NCBI GenBank assembly: GCA_965218095.1
Contig: OZ244587.1
Coordinates: 2,496,001-2,560,000, forward strand
DNA: 64,000 bases
Origin: Candidatus Poribacteria bacterium
GTDB taxonomy: Bacteria > Poribacteria > WGA-4E > PCPOR2b
Reading direction: 5' to 3'
Made by a program: the position numbers and the translations under genes. The notes under the pieces were generated by a model that was not told where the DNA came from, ran no database searches, and saw only the letters and a program-made list of their open reading frames with translations. Positions 4,255 to 58,386 of the stretch are shown one piece after another. Each line of letters starts with the position of its first letter. The stretch's first letter is position 1.

Positions 4255-7200
4255 ATGGCAAAACCCGCATTTGTTCACCTACACAATCATAGCGAATATA
4301 GTCTGCTTGATGGTGCCTGTCGAATCGTGGACATGATCGATTGGGCTTATAAAACGAGCACGCCTGCGGTTGCACTCACAGATCACGGCAACCTGTTTGG
4401 TGCATGGGAGTTCTACAAAACAGCGAAGGATAAGGGCGTCAATCCGATTATCGGTTGTGAGGTTTACGTGGCACCTGGCAGTCGCCATGAACGTGGCAAA
4501 GAACAGGGCAGTCCGTATCACCTGACGCTGCTCTCGGAGGATGCAACCGGTTATAAAAACCTCATGAAGTTGGTTTCGCTCGGCTACATTGAGGGCTTTT
4601 ACTCGAAACCTCGCATCGACATGGAAATCCTGCGCGAGCACCAAGAAGGCATCATTGCCCTGACAGGGTGCATCCAGGGATTTGTTCCGGCGCTTCTGGC
4701 TTTGGATCAGCGCGACGAAGCAGTGAAAAACTTCAGGATGCTTCAGGAAATTATGGGTAAAGATAACCTGTATGTCGAGGTTCAGAGTCACGGCATCCTC
4801 GAAGAAGAACGTGCCTATCATGTCATGGTAGAGCTTGCCAAAGAGTATAATTTGCCACTCGTTGGAACAAACGATTGTCACTACCTCAAAAGTTCCGACC
4901 ACAAGATGCACGATGTGCTACTGTGCATCCAAATGAAGCGTACAGTGAGTGAAGCAGACCGCATGCGCTTTCTGAATGAGTTTTATTTCAAAAGCATTGA
5001 TGAGATGAACGAGGCGCTTAAGGATTTTCCGCCCGAAGCGATTACTAACACCATTGAGATTGCCAATCGGTGCCAACTGAAACTCCATTACGGCGAGAAC
5101 ATGATGCCGAAATATGAAGTGCCCGAAGGCTACACCGACGCCACCTATCTTTCCAAGCTCTGCTACGACGGGTTGAAGGAAAAGTATGGCGAACTCTCCT
5201 CAGAGGTAAAGCAGCAAGTCGACCACGAGCTTGATGTGATCACACAGACCGGCTACTGCGGCTATTTTCTGATCGTGTGGGATTACGTCAACTACGCACG
5301 AAAGCAGGGCTTTCCGCTGACCGCCCGTGGGTCGTCGGCGAGTAGCTTAGTTTTGTATGCCCTCGGCGTAATCAACTTCAACCCAATGGACTATGGCTGC
5401 CTATTTGAACGTTTTCTGAATCTTGAGCGTGTCGATCCACCTGACATCGACATTGATTTCGCAGACGAAGCCCGGAAACTGGTGATTGATTACCTAATCG
5501 AGAAATACGGCTCGGAATCCGTGGGGAGTATTGCGGCTTTCAACAGCCTTGGGGCAAGGGCTGCGATTAAGGATGTTGGTCGGGCTTTGGATATACCGTT
5601 GGAGAACGTCGATCGATTAACGAAGTTGATTCCAAGTACACCGGGAATTACGATCGATAAAGCCTTAGAAGATGTACCGCAATTAAAGGAAATCGCCGAA
5701 GAATCCGACAATCAGGAGTTGATAGAACTCTCAAAAGCAGTCGAAGGGATGAAGCGGCACGTCTCAACTCACGCTTCGGGAATTGTGGTGGCAAATGGCC
5801 CCCTTACCGATTACGTGCCCCTGTTCAAGGATAAGCACGGGCGAATTGCCACACAGTTTGAAGGAACAACGGTTTCAGAAATCGGTATGGTGAAGTTCGA
5901 TTTTCTCGGCGTGCGCACTTTGTCGGAAACCTACAACTGCCTTAACCGAATCAAGGAACGGCATGGGGTAGACCTCAAACTTGAAGATATTCCGTTTGAT
6001 GATGAAAAGACTTACGCTCTCATCAGCAAGGGGCTTGTTGCAGGGCTCTTTCAGTTGGAGACCTCGCCGGGAATGCGTCGCATTATCATGCAAATTAAGC
6101 CCGATAATTTTGAGGAGTTCACAGCGATTCCCGCGCTGTATCGGCCCGGCCCTCTGGACAGCGGGATGATGGATAGCTTCATTCGCCGTAAACTTAAAGT
6201 CGAAAAGGTCACATACCCGCACCCGATTTTGGAAAACGCGCTGAAGAATACCTTCGGTGTGTGCGTTTATCAGGAACAGGTGATGCGGATTGCCCAAGAT
6301 ATGGCTGGATATACGCTTGGAGAGGCGGGCGTCCTCAATTACGCGGTGAGTAAAAAGAAAGTCGACATGATCAAAGAGCAGCGCGTGAAATTCGTTGAAG
6401 GGGCGGTCAACAACGGAATCAAGGAGGAGGAAGCGGGAGAAGTCTTCGACCTGATTGAGCCATTTGGTCGGTATGCGTTCAACAAATCGCACACCGTCAC
6501 CTACGCGATTCTGTCATATCAGATGGCGTACCTCAAGACGTACTATCCGCGGGAGTTTATGGCGTCAATGATGACCGGTGAATCTGCCCATAGCGACAAG
6601 ATTACGAGATATACCGCCGAATGTCGCAAGCTATCGGAATTCCTCGAAACAAAGATTGAAGTCCTACCCCCGGATATTAACAGCAGCAATAAGGACTTTA
6701 CTGTTGTTGGGGAGGACATCCGTTTTGGGTTAATTGCCGTCAAAAACGTTAGCGACGCGGCGCTTGAGGCGATTGTCCAGGCGCGCGAAAAGGACGGTTC
6801 ATTTAAGTCGCTGCAAGACTTCTGCGAGCGGGTCGATACGAAGCTGGTTAATAAGCGGGCGATTGAAAGTTTGATTATGGCGGGGGCGTTTGACTCACTC
6901 GATGGGCATCGGGCGCAGCATCTAGCGAGTCTTGAGCAAGTTATGAAGGCAGCTCAGAGCGCGCAAAAGGACCGGGAGAAGGGGCAGATGAATCTCTTCG
7001 GAGCGATTGAGGAGGAAACGCCGATGACGCAGGTGGATCTAGTCGATGCGCCGGAATGGTCGTATGCCGAAATGCTCAAGAATGAAAAGGAACAACTCGG
7101 CTTCTATCTTTCCGGGCACCCGCTGGAGCAGTATGAGGACATTATGAAATACTACACCACTGCCACTTCTCAAACCCTTACGGAGCATTCTAACGGGACG

Positions 7201-7788
7201 GAGGTGTACGCCGTTGGCTTGATCGCTTCGGTTCACCTCACCAGAACCAAGAAGGGCGATCCGATGGCAATCTTGGTTATCGAAGATCTGGAAGGCGTCA
7301 CCGATGTTGTTGTTTTCCCGGAAGCCTACAAGGGTTCACGGTACGTGATTGAGGAAGGCAGTGTTGTGTGGGTTCGTGGGAATGTTGGCGAAGGCAGACA
7401 GAAGAATGGAGGGAATGGCGACGAAATCGAGGAGGATATTCGTCAGATTCAGGCGGAGGCGATCTTACCGATTGATGAGGTTGTAGACGAGTTGACATCG
7501 GCAGTCGAAGTCGAGATTGCTGAGACTGATATTGCCAATCAGGAGAAGATTGATGCGCTGCAGACCATCTGTTTGCGAGGACGCGGCGACCATGATCTGA
7601 TTCTGCGTCTCATAAATCCCAGGTACGGTGAAGTCATCGCGCAATGCAGCGCACGCTACAACATTTCCTATGCGCCCAAAATCGTGTCGGAAATTGAAGC
7701 CCTCTTTGGCAGCGACTCCGTTAAGCCGAGCAACCGCACCACTCGTGTTGGAGAGAAATCTCAATATTCTACGATGAATTTTGTCTGA
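4255..7788 (+). CDS. dnaE: DNA polymerase III alpha subunit
   Basis: PHP motif HLHNHSEYSLLDGA, catalytic PDIDIDF, KFDFLG, YAFNKSH, clamp-binding QMNLF, OB domain; 1177 aa. Confidence 0.98.
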   Translation: MAKPAFVHLHNHSEYSLLDGACRIVDMIDWAYKTSTPAVALTDHGNLFGAWEFYKTAKDKGVNPIIGCEVYVAPGSRHERGKEQGSPYHLTLLSEDATGYKNLMKLVSLGYIEGFYSKPRIDMEILREHQEGIIALTGCIQGFVPALLALDQRDEAVKNFRMLQEIMGKDNLYVEVQSHGILEEERAYHVMVELAKEYNLPLVGTNDCHYLKSSDHKMHDVLLCIQMKRTVSEADRMRFLNEFYFKSIDEMNEALKDFPPEAITNTIEIANRCQLKLHYGENMMPKYEVPEGYTDATYLSKLCYDGLKEKYGELSSEVKQQVDHELDVITQTGYCGYFLIVWDYVNYARKQGFPLTARGSSASSLVLYALGVINFNPMDYGCLFERFLNLERVDPPDIDIDFADEARKLVIDYLIEKYGSESVGSIAAFNSLGARAAIKDVGRALDIPLENVDRLTKLIPSTPGITIDKALEDVPQLKEIAEESDNQELIELSKAVEGMKRHVSTHASGIVVANGPLTDYVPLFKDKHGRIATQFEGTTVSEIGMVKFDFLGVRTLSETYNCLNRIKERHGVDLKLEDIPFDDEKTYALISKGLVAGLFQLETSPGMRRIIMQIKPDNFEEFTAIPALYRPGPLDSGMMDSFIRRKLKVEKVTYPHPILENALKNTFGVCVYQEQVMRIAQDMAGYTLGEAGVLNYAVSKKKVDMIKEQRVKFVEGAVNNGIKEEEAGEVFDLIEPFGRYAFNKSHTVTYAILSYQMAYLKTYYPREFMASMMTGESAHSDKITRYTAECRKLSEFLETKIEVLPPDINSSNKDFTVVGEDIRFGLIAVKNVSDAALEAIVQAREKDGSFKSLQDFCERVDTKLVNKRAIESLIMAGAFDSLDGHRAQHLASLEQVMKAAQSAQKDREKGQMNLFGAIEEETPMTQVDLVDAPEWSYAEMLKNEKEQLGFYLSGHPLEQYEDIMKYYTTATSQTLTEHSNGTEVYAVGLIASVHLTRTKKGDPMAILVIEDLEGVTDVVVFPEAYKGSRYVIEEGSVVWVRGNVGEGRQKNGGNGDEIEEDIRQIQAEAILPIDEVVDELTSAVEVEIAETDIANQEKIDALQTICLRGRGDHDLILRLINPRYGEVIAQCSARYNISYAPKIVSEIEALFGSDSVKPSNRTTRVGEKSQYSTMNFV

Positions 7789-23521: not shown

Positions 23522-26051
23522 ACGATACCTTCTTCCAAATTTGTTGGATGTTTTGCCGCAGTTGAAATTCCGAAAACAACTGGCTCGTCTGTTTAACCTG
23601 TTCACCATTCAGATAGGTTTCGGATTCGTGAAGTTGACGCTTCTTCGACGGCGGCGGTAAAAGCTGGATTTCGCGTTTGGGAGAATCTGAGTATTGAACC
23701 AAAAGCCGTAATTCTTCAAGGATTGAAAGCCCATTCGCGACGGCGAAAGCTGGAATTGAATCGGCCTGGGCTCCTGCCATCACTCCCTCGAGTGCAAGTT
23801 GCTTACCGTTGCCCTGACTTAGCGTTTGCAGCATTTTATAGAGCTTTCTCAGGGTCTGTTCATCTGGATATTCCCAAGAAATACATTTCTGCATCCATTC
23901 TATATCCTTCGGATTATAAATCAGATGGATGTATGTCGTTTCAGGATGTTTGAATGCTGGCTGACATCGATTAAAGAACATCAATTGCTGAGGGATTGGG
24001 TGACAGAATACAAGGTGGTTGACATGAGGCAGATTGGTCAAGGTACAACTTGAAGCAATCGCGAGCAGTTCCCGCTTTGCCAGTTTATCCACTATGAACT
24101 GTTTTTCGGTTTCAGACATATCCGCGTCGCACCGACCAATTTCCTCTTTTGAACCGATCAACGCAAGAATCTGGTCTAACGCCTTTCCGTCTCGCACATA
24201 TAACAGCGTGGATTCCCCCCGATCGAGTAGGTTGAGAAGGTAATTCTGCTTGCTTCTCACATTGCGGCGATCAACAATTCTCACAGGGCTTTCCATGTCC
24301 TCTGTTGGGAATACCGCTTGAAGGGAATGGCGGTCAACCGTGTGCAGTTGAAGATCTTCAATCTTCAATTGGAGGCGACGGGTATTGTTCCATTCATTAA
24401 TCTCCGGCTCAAAAGCCAGATCCAATCGGATGTTCTTATTTCTCAGCGCAGTGAAGTGATCTGACATACGCCACCCAACGGCTTCGACTGTTTGACGCCC
24501 GTCCGTCACAAACAGCTTGAGATGGTTCTTCTCCTTCCCAATTAAGTCCGGTGGTCGCTGGAGAAACAGGTTGTGCATCGCAAGGCGCGGCGATGGATTA
24601 TCCGCCCCAAAAGGTTCAAGCAGATGCAGTTCTTCTATGGCTGCCAGCGTCAAATAAGGCGTCTCCACTTCAAGGTCTACGCTCAACTTCGGAACGAGAT
24701 CTTCATCAGAGAGGTGTTCAGAGGCATATTCGTTAAATCGCTTCGCAAATCTGGGGATATTCCTCGTTTTGATTGTCAGCCCTGCTGCCGCCTTATGCCC
24801 ACCATGTTTGACCAACAGCTTGTCACATGCGTTCAAACTGGCAGCGAGGTCAATGCCTTCGATGCCGCGTCCGGAGCCGTGCGCTTCGTCGCCATCGATT
24901 GCAAGCAGGAACACAGGACGGTAATACTGCTCAAGAATCCGTGAGGCGACAATACCAACAACCCCTCGATGCCACTTCTCGTGGGCGACAACCAAACCCT
25001 TCACCTTGTCGAGATTTACCTCTTTTTTAATCGTTGCAACTGCTTGCTCCTGGATTCGATTCTCCACCTCCCGCCGCTCTCGATTATGGGCGTCAAGCTC
25101 TTTGGCGATTGGCGCCGCTTCTTCGTAAGATTCAGTCGTCAACAACCGAACCACCTTGCTTGCTGTGTCCATTCGCCCAGCCGCGTTAATGCGGGGACCT
25201 AACACATACGACAGCGTATGCCCAACGATTGGCTTGTAGGGGCTATGGTTCGCCACATCGCAGAGCGCCCGAACCCCAGGACGTTCACGTTTGTTGATTT
25301 CCGCCAGGCCAAGCCGCGTGAGGATTCGATTCTCCCCCGTCAGCGTGGCGATGTCCACAACCGTGCCGAGCGCGACCAGATCGAGTTGAGATTGGAGAAA
25401 CGGATTCAGGTCGTCGCCCCCCATCAATCCGTGCGCCAACTTGAACGCCAATCCAACCCCCGCGAGCCCATCGAAGGGGTATTCGCTCTCCGGCATCTTC
25501 GGAGTGATGATGGCGTAAGCCGGCGGCTGCGCGTCGGGGCGCGGCTGATGGTGGTCTGTGATAATGACATCCACACCGATCTCGTTGGCAAGCTCCACCT
25601 CTTCAATCGACGTAATCCCGCAGTCAACCGTGATTAACAGATCGCAGCCCTCATCCTTTAGTTCCCGCATCGCTTTCTTGTTGAGCCCATATCCTTCCTT
25701 AAAACGGTCGGGAATATACGGCGCCACCGGGAAATCGAGATGCCGAAATGTGTTTAGCAACAGCGAAGCCGCTGTCGTGCCATCGGTATCGTAATCTCCG
25801 AAGATCCAGACTTGTTCGCTGCGCTTCATCGCTGCACGGATGCGCTCAACCGCCTTTTCCATCCCGTACATCTTGAATGGCGGATGTAGATCTGCGGTTG
25901 TTGGATATAAATACGCACGCGCTGCATCTTCCGCTTCAATGCCTCGATTGATGAGAAGTTGCGCGACCAACTGCGAAATTCCCAGTCGCACTGCCAGCCG
26001 GGAACTCTTCTCGATGTCATGGGTTTTAACCTGCCAGATTTTTTGTTTCAT
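23499..26051 (-). CDS. recJ: ssDNA exonuclease RecJ with long C-terminal extension
   Basis: GDYDTDG, TVDCG, TDHH, PRINAAGR, GSGR, GGH..AAG, LEPFG.DNP; about 270 extra C-terminal residues. Confidence 0.96.
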   Translation of the reverse strand: MKQKIWQVKTHDIEKSSRLAVRLGISQLVAQLLINRGIEAEDAARAYLYPTTADLHPPFKMYGMEKAVERIRAAMKRSEQVWIFGDYDTDGTTAASLLLNTFRHLDFPVAPYIPDRFKEGYGLNKKAMRELKDEGCDLLITVDCGITSIEEVELANEIGVDVIITDHHQPRPDAQPPAYAIITPKMPESEYPFDGLAGVGLAFKLAHGLMGGDDLNPFLQSQLDLVALGTVVDIATLTGENRILTRLGLAEINKRERPGVRALCDVANHSPYKPIVGHTLSYVLGPRINAAGRMDTASKVVRLLTTESYEEAAPIAKELDAHNRERREVENRIQEQAVATIKKEVNLDKVKGLVVAHEKWHRGVVGIVASRILEQYYRPVFLLAIDGDEAHGSGRGIEGIDLAASLNACDKLLVKHGGHKAAAGLTIKTRNIPRFAKRFNEYASEHLSDEDLVPKLSVDLEVETPYLTLAAIEELHLLEPFGADNPSPRLAMHNLFLQRPPDLIGKEKNHLKLFVTDGRQTVEAVGWRMSDHFTALRNKNIRLDLAFEPEINEWNNTRRLQLKIEDLQLHTVDRHSLQAVFPTEDMESPVRIVDRRNVRSKQNYLLNLLDRGESTLLYVRDGKALDQILALIGSKEEIGRCDADMSETEKQFIVDKLAKRELLAIASSCTLTNLPHVNHLVFCHPIPQQLMFFNRCQPAFKHPETTYIHLIYNPKDIEWMQKCISWEYPDEQTLRKLYKMLQTLSQGNGKQLALEGVMAGAQADSIPAFAVANGLSILEELRLLVQYSDSPKREIQLLPPPSKKRQLHESETYLNGEQVKQTSQLFSEFQLRQNIQQIWKKVSYECRIFN

Positions 26052-37691: not shown

Positions 37692-37692
37692 G

Positions 37693-37745
37693 GCGTGAAA
37701 CGTAAAACGTGAAACGTAAGCATTGATTACGTTTCACGTTTTGCT
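37693..37745. repeat. Heptamer tandem repeat (ACGTAAA/ACGTGAA) arranged as an inverted pair
   Basis: CGTGAAACGTAAAACGTGAAACGTAAG...TTACGTTTCACGTTTT; similar runs near 9650, 16194, 21352, 30611, 32288, 55345 and 63685. Confidence 0.7.
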
Positions 37746-37764
37746 TTACAGCATGAGGAATGAA

Positions 37765-38469
37765 ATGCCCTCCGAATACCAACACAACATTTTTGTTTTT
37801 GATATTGAAACGATTCCTCAAGAGACATTAACCATTCCTTTGTGGAGAGAACTCGAACACAAAACAGGGAATGAGGTTGCGAAAACATCTGAAAACGAAG
37901 AAACAATACGATTGAAATTACAGCACCTAAACCCGGCTTTCGGTCGAATTCTTTGTATTGGCGTTCTATACAAAAGTATGAACTCACAAGGAGAATGGAA
38001 GGAGGAAAGAGAAGCTTTCTATGCTTCTGATGAAAAGGAACTGCTGTCGAATTTTGGGAGCAGGTTAGCCGACTTTGACAACCGAAGAACTTTATTCGTT
38101 TCCTTTAACGGGCTACGGTTTGATGTGCCATTTATCATCGCCCGTACAATTGCCCAAGGTTTGCCTCGAACAAACAGACTCTTTCTTGATACATACAGAT
38201 ATGGAAGATTCCCTCATTTTGATGTTTGTCTTGCTTTAGAAAATCAACTGACGCTTGAAGCTGCCTGCGAGATGCTAGGTATAGACAATCCGAAAACAGA
38301 GGCTATAAGAGGAAGCGACGTTTTTGAATACTACAAACGAGGACAGATTCTAGAAATCTTAAATTATTGTCTTAGAGACGTTGAATCCACATATGAGATC
38401 TTTCAGAAAATCCAATCTTTTTATCCACTCTCATACGCAGATGAGAGAAAAGCAAGAAATTGGAGTTAG
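37765..38469 (+). CDS. DEDDy 3'-5' exonuclease (PolB exonuclease-like)
   Basis: ExoI FDIETIP, ExoII SFNGLRFDVPF, ExoIII YCLRDV. Confidence 0.88.
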   Translation: MPSEYQHNIFVFDIETIPQETLTIPLWRELEHKTGNEVAKTSENEETIRLKLQHLNPAFGRILCIGVLYKSMNSQGEWKEEREAFYASDEKELLSNFGSRLADFDNRRTLFVSFNGLRFDVPFIIARTIAQGLPRTNRLFLDTYRYGRFPHFDVCLALENQLTLEAACEMLGIDNPKTEAIRGSDVFEYYKRGQILEILNYCLRDVESTYEIFQKIQSFYPLSYADERKARNWS

Positions 38470-38760
38470 CTGAAGGGCGAAGTCACCCCAATTCCTGTTC
38501 GAAGCCCAACTTTCAAGTGCATTGCTTGTCGCAAGACGTTCTACCCCGAAAGTTTGGACTTTTGTGAGGTTTGTGGTGATTTTGCTTGCCTTGAGTGTAA
38601 AGAGGGGTTGGAACGTGCTGATTTGGAGGCGATTGGGCTTGGAGATTACACTGGTGACATTCAAAAGTATACGCGGGAGGAATACTTGAGCGGTAAAACT
38701 CAAGTGGAAACCAGCGGCTCCCTGCCTTCTGAACTCACAGATGATGATATCCCGTTTTAA
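38470..38760 (+). CDS. In-frame continuation of the exonuclease: 3xCxxC zinc-binding domain with SSB-like DDDIPF tail
   Basis: Same frame as the exonuclease, separated by a single TAG; CIAC, CEVC, CLEC; ends LTDDDIPF. Confidence 0.7.
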   Translation: MKGEVTPIPVRSPTFKCIACRKTFYPESLDFCEVCGDFACLECKEGLERADLEAIGLGDYTGDIQKYTREEYLSGKTQVETSGSLPSELTDDDIPF

Positions 38761-38796
38761 GTCTTTGCTTAATGCAGCTTTGAACAGGAAATTGTA

Positions 38797-41388
38797 ATGT
38801 CAGATAAGGGCTCATCCGTATACATAAAAATGAGTAACGATTTAACCCATATTCGCCAAACAATCGAAACAATTCTCCGTTGCAACCTCTCTGAAGCAAT
38901 TGGTCTCCCAGACAAAATGGAAGCTGAGAAAATAGTTCAGCGATTTCTCCATGCTGTCTCAGATCGAATGGGTGGGCGATCAGATCTGGTTCACAAGGAT
39001 TTGGAGCAACTGTCTCGCCAGATCGACCCACAGTGGGTCATCCTAGCAGCCGGCAAAGGAACCCGCATTGATCCGTCCAGCCGTCTGAACAAAAACTTAG
39101 ACCTATGGTTTGGTGAGCGGAATACTCTACAACTGTCCCGAAGCTACCTACCGGGAAGTCGTCCGCACATCATTGTCGTCAATCCCCAAATGGCGGCGCG
39201 CGTAGCGAAAACAGATATCCCTTCAAGTGGCGTCATCCTCCCTTCAGCACTTAATCCAGAAGAAACCAATCGACTGTTTGGACCAAACGTCATCCTGTGT
39301 GTACAACCCGAGCATCCTTACGGCACAGGTGCCGCGCTACGGGTTGCGTTGCCAGCGGTTGCCGAATCTGACGCAGAATGTATCGGTGTTGCCTTCGGCG
39401 ATGAGCCATTTCTGAATCAAGCCATCTTCGTGGGTATACTCCTGTCACACTTTACTGTCGGTGCGGATATTACCCTCTGTGGCAAAATTCCAGATACCGT
39501 CGTCGACAAAGGAGGGTTATTCTTTGACGATGAGGGAGAGTTCATCGGCACAAAGGAGTGGTACGACATGACCGATGTGGAGAAAGAGGCGATGTGGCGG
39601 CGACTGGAGCGCGGGGAAGCCTACACCAATACCGGTATCACCTTGATCCGCCGTGATGCAGCGATCGCCCGGATAAATCGATTGGAACCCCACGGGGATA
39701 ATTCGGAGCTCCATCATGTCGATCTCATCCGCCACTGCTATGAAGACGGCTTGAAAACCAACGCTTATATCCATCGAAGTGAAATTATCTCTGGCATCAA
39801 TCGCTGGTCAAACGTCCTCACTGGCGAAGAATACCTATTTGCAGATGCCAAGAAAAAACTAATCCAGAAAGGGATTCGGGTCGATCCGGCGGCACAGATC
39901 ACGTTGGCAAATGACGATATTGAGATCGGTCACGGATGCTACCTTTTAGGGCGTATTCATCTCGGCGGCAGGATACAGATTGGGAACTACTGTCGTCTCG
40001 AAAACGTTGTGTTGCGAGGAAATACCACTGTCGGTGACCGTGTTGGTTTGAAAGACGTGACCGCAACGGACACAGTCTTTGAGTCAAACTCGCTTTCGAC
40101 CGAAATCGCTGTGCCGATTACGGGCTTGGCAGTTGGCAGCTCTATCAAAAGCAGCCAATTCGATCGTGTGAAAGTCGGGGGTTCGACAAGCATCGAGTCC
40201 GTTGTTGCAAGGGCAACGGTGATTCCCGCAGAACTCTCCATAAGGGGCAAACAATTAGGCATCCCCGCCAGATCTACTAATCATGTAATACGCGACACAC
40301 AATCCGTTTCAAGCCAAATCTTGCAGACCGTCTTGGATCAACTGGTCTCCCCCGGCTATAGACCCGGTGTATTCACTTTCGGCGAAAAGCGTGGTTTGCC
40401 AGACTGGGAAAACCTCCGCCGGCATGTGAGTTCGCATTCGGAACGCGAATTGATTGAACGTGCCACCCGCAACCCGACATTACGTCAAGCTGCAATCAAT
40501 GCCGTTGAAGAACTGCTGGAGTTGCGGCAATCTAACGGTGCACATGTCATTGATGATTTGACGCCCGAAGAACTTTGGGGAAGCATCTTCCAAATTGTTA
40601 CGCTCTCTACGGGAAATCCAGATCCATATCGCAGGGACAAACTCAGTGCTAGACAAACAGCGATTAACCTACTCATCCAATTTTCAGATTGCGATTGGCT
40701 GGAGCGACTGAAACTGGTCATCGCCGCTAATATCATCGATTACAGTAGTGCAAGGGTTGTGGCGAAACTTCGAGAGAATCCAGATTACTTCAACCTTGTA
40801 TTGCGAGAGGCGATTCATGCATCCTTGGCGATTGATTGCTTTGACCAATTTCGGGCACGGGTAATTGAAGATGAACCAAAAAGGCTCCTCTGGCTTATCG
40901 ATAACGATGGTGAGTCGGTCTTTGATCTGTGGTTTATAGAGTCCCTCGCCGATTGTGGCCATCAGATTACGATTGTTGGCAAAGCGGAACCCGCAACTAA
41001 CGACGCAACGCTCGATGATTTACGAGAACTCACTGCACATCCGTATTTCCAAAAACTCCGGGAGCAGATTGCCGTTGGTGATATGCGTTTAATCTCATCG
41101 GGCTCAAACACCGTTGGGACCAATCTCTATCAAGCAACAGGAGAATTTGCGAATGCACTCCTTGATGTGGATCTCGTAATTTCAAAGGGACAGGGGAATC
41201 TCTTTACAACGTTGGGGTTAAAAAAGGACACGTTCTACCTACTGCTCTCCAAAGGGGTGACGGCGGAGCGTTTGACCGGGGTTGTCCCGAATCAGAATCA
41301 GGTGATTGATGGGTTGATTTTGGCGTATGTGCCGGGCGGAACACGGTTGAATCAGACACTCAAGAAATTTTGCACGAGGGATGATTGA
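38797..41388 (+). CDS. GlmU-like nucleotidyltransferase + left-handed beta-helix + DUF89 (ARMT1-like) phosphatase fusion
   Basis: ILAAGKGTR, QP...GTG.A, GDEP, GIN; hexapeptide repeats; DPY..K, ANIIDY, DNDGE, NDAT, ISKGQGN. Confidence 0.85.
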   Translation: MSDKGSSVYIKMSNDLTHIRQTIETILRCNLSEAIGLPDKMEAEKIVQRFLHAVSDRMGGRSDLVHKDLEQLSRQIDPQWVILAAGKGTRIDPSSRLNKNLDLWFGERNTLQLSRSYLPGSRPHIIVVNPQMAARVAKTDIPSSGVILPSALNPEETNRLFGPNVILCVQPEHPYGTGAALRVALPAVAESDAECIGVAFGDEPFLNQAIFVGILLSHFTVGADITLCGKIPDTVVDKGGLFFDDEGEFIGTKEWYDMTDVEKEAMWRRLERGEAYTNTGITLIRRDAAIARINRLEPHGDNSELHHVDLIRHCYEDGLKTNAYIHRSEIISGINRWSNVLTGEEYLFADAKKKLIQKGIRVDPAAQITLANDDIEIGHGCYLLGRIHLGGRIQIGNYCRLENVVLRGNTTVGDRVGLKDVTATDTVFESNSLSTEIAVPITGLAVGSSIKSSQFDRVKVGGSTSIESVVARATVIPAELSIRGKQLGIPARSTNHVIRDTQSVSSQILQTVLDQLVSPGYRPGVFTFGEKRGLPDWENLRRHVSSHSERELIERATRNPTLRQAAINAVEELLELRQSNGAHVIDDLTPEELWGSIFQIVTLSTGNPDPYRRDKLSARQTAINLLIQFSDCDWLERLKLVIAANIIDYSSARVVAKLRENPDYFNLVLREAIHASLAIDCFDQFRARVIEDEPKRLLWLIDNDGESVFDLWFIESLADCGHQITIVGKAEPATNDATLDDLRELTAHPYFQKLREQIAVGDMRLISSGSNTVGTNLYQATGEFANALLDVDLVISKGQGNLFTTLGLKKDTFYLLLSKGVTAERLTGVVPNQNQVIDGLILAYVPGGTRLNQTLKKFCTRDD

Positions 41389-58070: not shown

Positions 58071-58386
58071 GGCATTTTTCCCGGCAAGTGGTATTCAACA
58101 ACATTTTAAGACAAATTTGCCGGGGGATTTCTTCCCCAGCAACGGAGAAATATTATAACACACTCATCGGATCAATATCCACAATTACATCAATGCTCGT
58201 AGGTGGGGACGCTTCAGCGGATCGCAGAGTCAGTTCACGGAAATTCGTAACTGCTGACTCCGCAGCAGAAAGTACCATCGAAATTTGTTCTTGATTTTGG
58301 TGAGCGGCGCAGAAACGGGCCCCCGAATCTCAACTGATGGAAAACCGTCCACCTTGACGGTTTCGAGTTAATTAAGGAGCAAGTGA

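Follow-up and report, generated by a model that had tools for sequence, protein, structure and literature searches.

The window analysed here is a stretch of 64,000 nucleotides from a Candidatus Poribacteria genome (contig OZ244587.1, positions 2,496,001 to 2,560,000), and on its forward strand it carries a reading frame in which an exonuclease, an amber codon, a Cys-rich segment and the acidic tip of an SSB (a protein that binds single-stranded DNA) follow one another. The exonuclease open reading frame (ORF; 37765..38469, +) starts with ATG at 37765 and encodes 234 amino acids (aa), with a predicted PolB-type DEDDy 3'-5' exonuclease domain of family PF10108. It ends in a premature TAG (38467..38469, +), which lies where the exonuclease domain meets the tail and is replaced by Gln, Lys, Asn or Tyr in intact relatives. 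Past this codon the frame remains open for 96 codons (38470-38757), up to a TAA at 38758-38760. This tail comprises an orphaned in-frame segment (38470..38736, +), in which alignments, ratios of nonsynonymous to synonymous substitution (dN/dS) and an AlphaFold2 (AF2) model point to a C4 zinc ribbon together with a helix and a linker that varies, and a C-terminal tip, TDDDIPF, which together with the TAA occupies 38737..38760 (+) and has the same residues as the last seven of the genome's own SSB. Three Cys pairs are found in it, namely CIAC (tail residues 17-20), CEVC (32-35) and CLEC (40-43), and its end reads LTDDDIPF. The codon context of the break is AGT TAG CTG, with the CTG immediately 3' of the stop, and the earliest in-frame ATG, GTG or TTG of the tail is the TTG at 38554, downstream of the first CxxC. 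The original prediction for this locus had described a DEDDy exonuclease stopping at the TAG, a frame open for 96 further codons as far as LTDDDIPF, and a CTG after the stop with no in-frame ATG or GTG ahead of the first CxxC, and the sequence bears it out on all these points.

In the Pfam search, the exonuclease ORF of the window is matched by PF10108 with 54.4 bits (cut-off 24, E 1.8e-14), in agreement with that prediction, and likewise by PF13482. The catalytic set consists of D13 (37801-37803), E15 (37807-37809), D120 (38122-38124), Y201 (38365-38367) and D205 (38377-38379). These D/E/D/Y/D columns are invariant across 49 sequences, and the Exo I (DxE), Exo II (D) and Exo III (YxxxD) motifs are all present in the window. 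A profile search of the PDB matches the domain to family-B polymerases (E 1.7e-13), and PolB exonuclease domains are also the top Foldseek matches (E about 1e-7) of the AF2 model of P0061, an intact relative that is 81% identical to the window protein over its full length. This model, built from the 49-sequence alignment, has a mean predicted local distance difference test score (pLDDT) of 80.3 and a predicted template modelling score (pTM) of 0.79, with the exonuclease domain mostly at 84-97. By profile, by catalytic residues and by predicted fold, the exonuclease half belongs to PF10108, a family that a classification paper terms only a 'predicted' exonuclease (PMC3985635). It has the domain, the D-E-D-Y-D set and the fold in common with the stand-alone PolB-exonuclease-like proteins (PF10108/COG3298), and differs from them by the zinc ribbon and the tip, which are features of the window clade. 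The stand-alone proteins are 209-226 aa long in the seven phage-type module loci described below, where they end right after the Exo III motif.

One fused gene in the intact relatives

A word-indexed search with the exonuclease half recovered 43 proteins from 223 candidates, to which cluster look-ups added more records. The six nearest proteins outside the window are 66-85% identical to it, measure 331-386 aa and carry the Cys segment and the tip in a single ORF. The tip forms the end of 15 records that are uninterrupted and 330-357 aa long (P0002-4, 6, 7, 51, 55-59, 61-63 and 65), and some of these come from contigs between 1.2 and 6.3 Mb in size. At the position of the break, Gln is found in all ten of the nearest intact or near-intact records (P0002, 3, 50, 51, 55-59 and 61), as in NWSQLKG compared with NWS-stop-LKG in the window. 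More distant relatives have Lys or Asn at this codon (Asn in P0005, which has lost its stop), and a copy cut by a contig end in the genome called G006 has Tyr. From either Gln codon (CAG or CAA), a stop such as the window's TAG is reached by a single base change. Because the relatives are uninterrupted and have Gln at the break, the window is read as carrying a nonsense allele, and the locus is, with high confidence, the broken form of a clade-specific fused single gene. Going by these records, the fused form is the norm in the clade. Among the options that the original prediction had offered, a nonsense-mutated fusion with an SSB-tail mimic is the one upheld: the relatives have one ORF, in which the TAG is replaced by Gln, Lys, Asn or Tyr, the break is a sense codon in the 15 uninterrupted records, the two parts are fused in them rather than being separate genes, and the tip is the same as that of the genome's own SSB.

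Outside the clade the situation is different. Thirty-five more distant matches measure 212-286 aa, and the 11 that were examined all stop just after the Exo III motif and are tail-less. A scan of genome contigs gave 33 loci, all of them either tail-less homologues or a remnant of 30 codons, with no intact fused copy among them. The gene is held at E 1e-10 or better by three of the 176 species genomes of the phylum, which are the window genome, G028 and G006. None of the three copies is whole: the window copy has the TAG, that of G028 an insertion sequence and a TAA, and that of G006 is the one cut by the contig end. The named relatives are labelled Candidatus Poribacteria, and four RNA-library holders (X7 and X9-X11) sponge metagenome.

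The tail gave no Pfam match above cut-off and none to an NCBIfam or PHROG family. In an alignment of seven tails, four Cys residues are invariant (codons 38518-38520, 38527-38529, 38587-38589 and 38596-38598), forming a CxxC...CxxC arrangement, together with the motif KYT.E..L and the final D.IPF. The additional Cys pair (38563-38565 and 38572-38574) is variable, CEVC being replaced by CEMF and CELL in the closest relatives. The three Cys pairs of the original prediction are thus all present in the window, but conservation across the seven sequences extends to the first and the third only. In the helix motif KYT(W>R)EEYL, the window has Arg at 38674-38676 (W304R) instead of an otherwise invariant Trp. 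Longer members of the clade carry a second, internal D-F-[IV]-P-F-E-E motif shortly ahead of the tip. In pairwise comparison of the window, G028 and G006 (three pairs), dN/dS (Nei-Gojobori method, NG86) is 0.25-0.31 in the tail and 0.11-0.19 in the shared end of the exonuclease domain. Judged by these substitution ratios, the tail is a real, selected coding region under purifying selection. In the P0061 model, the ribbon (residues 240-285) reaches a pLDDT of 74-86, and residues 290-299 and 314-331 fall below 50. The tail folded alone has a pLDDT of 56.4. As modelled, P0061 is a folded enzyme with a floppy tail.

When the tail profile was run against 1.84 billion representative proteins, it returned one fused cluster and two fragments, all from this clade. 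It was never found on another protein among these representatives, two further matches being weak and unrelated. A scan of metagenomes of the Joint Genome Institute (JGI) with the same profile gave a sole locus, L045, which proved to be a ribonucleotide reductase picked up by a chance short-word match and was rejected.

The SSB tip and the stop codon

The genome has one SSB gene, located elsewhere, whose product ends in VTDDDIPF, and its TDDDIPF matches the tip of the nuclease frame at seven of seven residues. The third base differs in every one of the seven tip codons (ACA GAT GAT GAT ATC CCG TTT versus ACG GAC GAC GAC ATT CCT TTC), and therefore the likeness appears to be kept at the protein level rather than to come from a recent DNA copy. 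Endings of the form [DE][DE][ILVMF]PF occur in only two of the 58,517 open frames of the genome (at least 50 aa, six frames), which are the SSB gene and this tail, so that the Cys/tip pattern is more than would be expected by chance. In G006, the other genome in which both genes could be compared, the SSB ends in ..TIDDIPF and the nuclease in ..LVDDIPF, both having a hydrophobic residue in place of the third Asp. The tip has the form of a bacterial SSB C-terminus (SSB-Ct, DDDIPF): an acidic run is followed by I-P-F at a free C-terminus, behind a linker that is predicted to be disordered, with a pLDDT under 50 in the model, and its last seven residues are those of the genome's own SSB. Neither half contains an SSB domain (PF00436, the oligonucleotide-binding or OB fold) in the Pfam search, and without an OB fold the predicted fused protein is not an SSB. 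Here the carrier of the tip would be an enzyme and not an OB-fold protein that binds single-stranded DNA (ssDNA). An SSB tetramer presents four tips, whereas a monomeric enzyme would present a single one.

The copying of an SSB tip onto other proteins is already known. Prophage DUF669 proteins end in DDDIPF, according to the work that describes them (PMC13687109). In both cases the tip of the host SSB appears on another protein, with the difference that DUF669, as reported there, itself binds ssDNA. The theme recurs, and the exonuclease would be a new carrier. A full-text literature search, with subscription journals outside its coverage, found no paper on an exonuclease or any other non-SSB enzyme with an SSB-Ct.

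Among the proteins that bind the SSB tip, the genome encodes two RecQ-like proteins, RecJ, RecO and PriA; chi and the C-terminal domain of ExoI were not found in it. RecJ is encoded within the window (about 24354-24680, -; RecJ_OB 104 bits, in an open frame of 854 aa), 13 kb upstream of the nuclease and not adjoining it. A 45-aa frame at about 58248-58367 (-) matches the PriA C-terminal domain with 29.4 bits; the full PriA lies elsewhere, and this frame may be a gene fragment.

The stop codon itself is a real feature of the DNA. Contigs from public runs, coming from four runs and four studies (X1, X2, X6 and X7), were aligned to 37700-38800. The TAG at 38467-38469 is covered without a single difference by contigs of X2, of X6 and of the metatranscriptome library X7; X1 runs across all of this region and could itself be what the window was taken from. 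The TAG is no assembly artefact, and the check in other sequence data that the original prediction had envisaged supports the stop.

It also seems to be read as a stop. ARAGORN found no tRNA with a CTA anticodon in the genome. TAG terminates 678 of the 2613 stop-to-stop frames of at least 300 aa, and for this reason it is regarded as an ordinary stop in this genome. The fold of 106 bases of RNA around and after the stop is no better than that of shuffled sequences (z = +1.0), and Rfam gave nothing relevant around it. In the same ARAGORN output, outside the window, contig G000:C1 has two tRNA-SeC genes (anticodon TCA, 2576029-2576122 and 4577829-4577903) and one tRNA with an unreadable anticodon (3060493-3060568).

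The copy in G028 has a TAA at the identical codon (AGG TAA CTA), with the frame behind it open to DDDIPF, and is additionally cut by an insertion sequence at about residue 157. P0057, the near-identical intact twin of this copy, has Gln at the break codon. A tree of 37 exonuclease domains places the window as the sister of a group made up of the six other 331-aa forms, with P0057 inside that group. The simplest reading of this tree is that the TAG of the window and the TAA of G028 are two independent changes. There are 20 further codons one transition away from a stop in the window gene, and therefore the coincidence of both stops at one codon has a chance of about 1 in 21.

Proposed phage ancestry and repeated loss

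The closest tail-less homologues, 35-40% identical, lie on six viral contigs and on one contig of a Bacteroidales metagenome-assembled genome. At these seven loci the nuclease is followed by AAA_24 (Sak4-like) in all seven and then by DUF669 in six, and a metallo-beta-lactamase (MBL)-fold gene stands upstream in all seven. The full order of genes in these phage-type loci (L012, L055 and L057-L061) is an HD/poly(A)-polymerase-like gene (4/7), a Holliday-resolvase-like nuclease (3/7), the MBL-fold gene, a small ORF, the PolB-exonuclease-like gene, AAA_24 and DUF669. In PMC13687109, DUF669 and an AAA protein are described as the 'Healer' recombination pair, DUF669 being the ssDNA-binding protein. 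The modules found here are a variant of that pair, with a nuclease of the PolB-exonuclease rather than the Cas4 type.

In the tree of exonuclease domains, the fused clade (support 98/99) has the phage-module clade as its sister, and two sets of cellular homologues from housekeeping contexts fall elsewhere. The exonuclease is inferred to descend from the nuclease of a phage recombination module composed of exonuclease, Sak4-like ATPase and DUF669 SSB. The window differs from such modules in having neither AAA_24 nor DUF669 next to the nuclease, the adjacency being met in the sister clade only. In the window genome as a whole no AAA_24 was found above cut-off; no DUF669 match was obtained either, a weak negative result, as the DUF669 control gave a match in none of 14 control genomes.

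Within the clade the gene has been inactivated in several ways: the events comprise two independent stops at the domain boundary, disruption by an insertion sequence, an apparent frameshift, deletions and a candidate stop-loss, in which the tip is buried. In three related genomes (loci L040, L009 and L010; relatives G014 and G017) only the first 30 or so codons of the nuclease survive, flanked by the same pair of neighbouring genes. The remainder of the gene is replaced in L040 by an insert of 1.36 kb (6092-7451), whose ORFs of 57 and 187 aa match no Pfam family. The final 53 bases of the aldehyde dehydrogenase gene are also present a second time, within this insert. P0008 and P0050 come from contigs of equal length (26,020), and P0008 has what looks like a frameshift at its end. 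In P0053 and P0054 the divergence sets in shortly ahead of the catalytic Asp of Exo III. In P0005 (386 aa, on a contig of 2.9 kb), a further 55 residues come after the tip ..VDDIPF, so that its Phe is not C-terminal, which may represent a stop-loss disabling the tip. The picture that these sequences give is that of a dispensable gene repeatedly lost in the clade.

The window copy bears further marks of this process. Residue 98 (38056-38058), which is Trp in at least 90% of the 49 family members, is Gly, a replacement that may impair the predicted exonuclease activity of the window enzyme. W98G and W304R are private to the window: the 16 fused relatives all have Trp at both positions. Counting private changes served only to flag these two, as such a count is confounded by the number of close relatives that each sequence has, and P0005 and P0006 score above the window. 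The loss of both Trp residues suggests that the window gene is decaying; it appears to have been disrupted by a single base change and is probably being lost.

The gene is flanked by an aldehyde dehydrogenase gene and by a gene for a nucleoside triphosphate (NTP)-transferase/ARMT1 fusion, and these two remain together in relatives without the nuclease gene. The gap between the stop of the aldehyde dehydrogenase gene and the start of the nuclease is occupied by a hairpin, a long inverted repeat at 37692-37753, for which Rfam gave a single sub-threshold miRNA-like match. A promoter and terminator scan returned no promoter-like and two terminator-like sites, which is not above shuffled sequence. 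The downstream gene (38797-41388, +) begins 36 bases after the tail and encodes 863 aa, in which a nucleotidyltransferase, a left-handed beta-helix acetyltransferase-like (GlmU-like) part and an ARMT1-like damage-control phosphatase are fused. It is conserved in relatives both with and without the nuclease gene. Just past it lies a DDE transposase gene (PF01609; 41840-42850, -).

Competing explanations and significance

The intact form, as the records of relatives show, is one polypeptide of about 331-357 aa, in which a PolB-type exonuclease is followed by a C4 zinc ribbon and a flexible acidic tail ending in TDDDIPF-COOH. The proposed model is that a nuclease from a phage module would have settled in the chromosome and then gained the tip of the host SSB. 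This tip would dock the nuclease into the pockets where SSB-interacting enzymes (RecO, RecJ, RecQ and PriA) read SSB, so that the nuclease would be brought to repair and restart complexes, or compete at them, without sitting on SSB. In the window genome, the stop would remove both the ribbon and the tip, and at most a tail-less exonuclease would be made. The docking of the tip, suggested by the likeness to SSB-Ct, is put forward tentatively and at somewhat less than even confidence. The explanation as a whole, that is, a nonsense allele of a fused gene with SSB-tip docking, is slightly favoured. A partial precedent comes from phage T7, in which the acidic tails of gp4 and of gp2.5, the T7 SSB, are reported to compete for one site on the polymerase, gp5/trx (bioRxiv 10.64898/2026.05.20.726333). 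In both cases a DNA enzyme, for T7 the gp4 helicase-primase, has an SSB-like acidic tail; the proteins and the motif are unrelated, and the likeness is one of possible working and not of membership.

The stop could instead be a selected loss of the tail, leaving a working stand-alone exonuclease like the tail-less homologues of about 220 aa. This would fit the five catalytic residues, which are all intact, the position of the stop exactly at the domain boundary and the second lineage stopped at the identical codon, as well as the presence of the allele in contigs of four runs and four studies. Contigs of RNA libraries also cover parts of the gene, where carry-over of DNA is possible, and being tail-less is the rule outside the clade in the 11 of 11 examined. 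However, Trp98, so widely kept in the family, is Gly in the window, the same-codon stop of G028 sits in a copy that is also cut by an insertion sequence, a coincidence of about 1 in 21 can arise by chance, and many relatives have lost the gene or have it in disrupted form. Such an adaptive truncation is considered unlikely. The stop might also be put to use, either by programmed read-through or by re-initiation at the CTG, giving a short nuclease together with a full-length protein or a separate tail protein. In this sense, the frame is open for 96 codons, a C follows the TAG, GGAG lies four bases ahead of the CTG, a second genome has a stop at the identical codon, and the residues of relatives at this codon (Q, K, Y and N) are mostly one base from a stop. 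Nevertheless, none of the 15 uninterrupted records has a stop there, the only other one (G028) being on a separate branch, and neither a suppressor tRNA nor an RNA structure after the stop was found for a TAG that is a normal stop in this genome. The GGAG, moreover, derives from Trp-Ser codons and is absent in G028. Recoding of either kind is thus very improbable. Read-through, which had been raised in the original prediction, finds no support in these results, the stop being unconserved, and neither does the coupled two-gene module proposed there: no start codon lies ahead of the first CxxC, and none of the relatives has a genuine two-gene arrangement.

The main alternative to docking concerns the tip, and holds that it acts in cis, as an acidic DNA mimic that folds back on the DNA-binding surface of its own protein or on the zinc ribbon and thereby gates activity. 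Self-binding tails are established for SSB-type proteins, as those of T7 gp2.5 and Escherichia coli SSB fold back on their own cores, and the tail in question is acidic and predicted to be disordered, beside a basic-looking zinc ribbon. A DNA mimic would, however, need no exact identity over seven residues to the host SSB tip with every synonymous site different, nor would it need to change in step with the SSB in G006, and the monomer model places the tip nowhere, at a pLDDT under 50. The exactness of the match to the host tip counts against regulation in cis, which is judged even less probable than a selected tail loss. It has also been argued, in the original prediction, that the locus could be a repair or defence system; in a defensive role the tip would bait phage proteins that target the SSB tip, or titrate SSB partners during infection. 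Phage and prophage proteins do copy SSB tips, as PMC13687109 reports, and the gene is patchy and often lost, like accessory genes. PADLOC-DB 2.0 gave no matching family for the fused relative, for the exonuclease half or for the tail, the neighbours are housekeeping genes that are syntenic without the nuclease gene, and there is neither a partner gene nor a toxin-like part. A decoy is the least probable explanation of all, and hardly tenable. Of the two functions proposed, defence is unsupported, and the presence of the sister clade in phage recombination modules points to recombination or repair.

Several points weigh against the favoured explanation, a nonsense allele of a fused gene whose tip docks with SSB partners. 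The Gln codon is inferred from protein records of intact relatives and not from their DNA, and contigs drop rare variants, so that a minor intact allele is possible in the four runs. The same-codon stop in G028 is a small unexplained point, unusual and not compelling, and it gives the rivals, selected tail loss and recoding, their main support. The co-variation of the SSB and nuclease tips comes from two genome pairs only and is a hint. The monomer model of P0061 shows no docking of the tip. As for the ancestry, the union of the fused and phage-module clades has a support of only 90/77, in a tree rooted at its midpoint. Finally, the tail is found in one small clade and is often lost, and it may be dispensable.

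For the window alone the result is modest: its copy is an ordinary broken gene, and the interest lies in the intact family. A wider scenario, at present rather doubtful, would be that uncultivated sponge-associated bacteria domesticated a phage-derived exonuclease and wired it into the SSB interactome by means of the host's own tip, and that the repeated inactivation reflects a tip-bearing nuclease that is costly or in conflict. The SSB tip is a hub peptide that guides enzymes of replication, repair and restart to single-stranded DNA. If the docking model is true, the enzyme would reach or block the pockets of SSB partners without SSB in between, and a natural tip-bearing enzyme of this kind would show that the hub is usable without SSB. 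It would add to the cases, mostly from phages, of tips copied onto other proteins, and it would offer a simple system for identifying the partners that recognise the tip in a phylum on which little work has been done.

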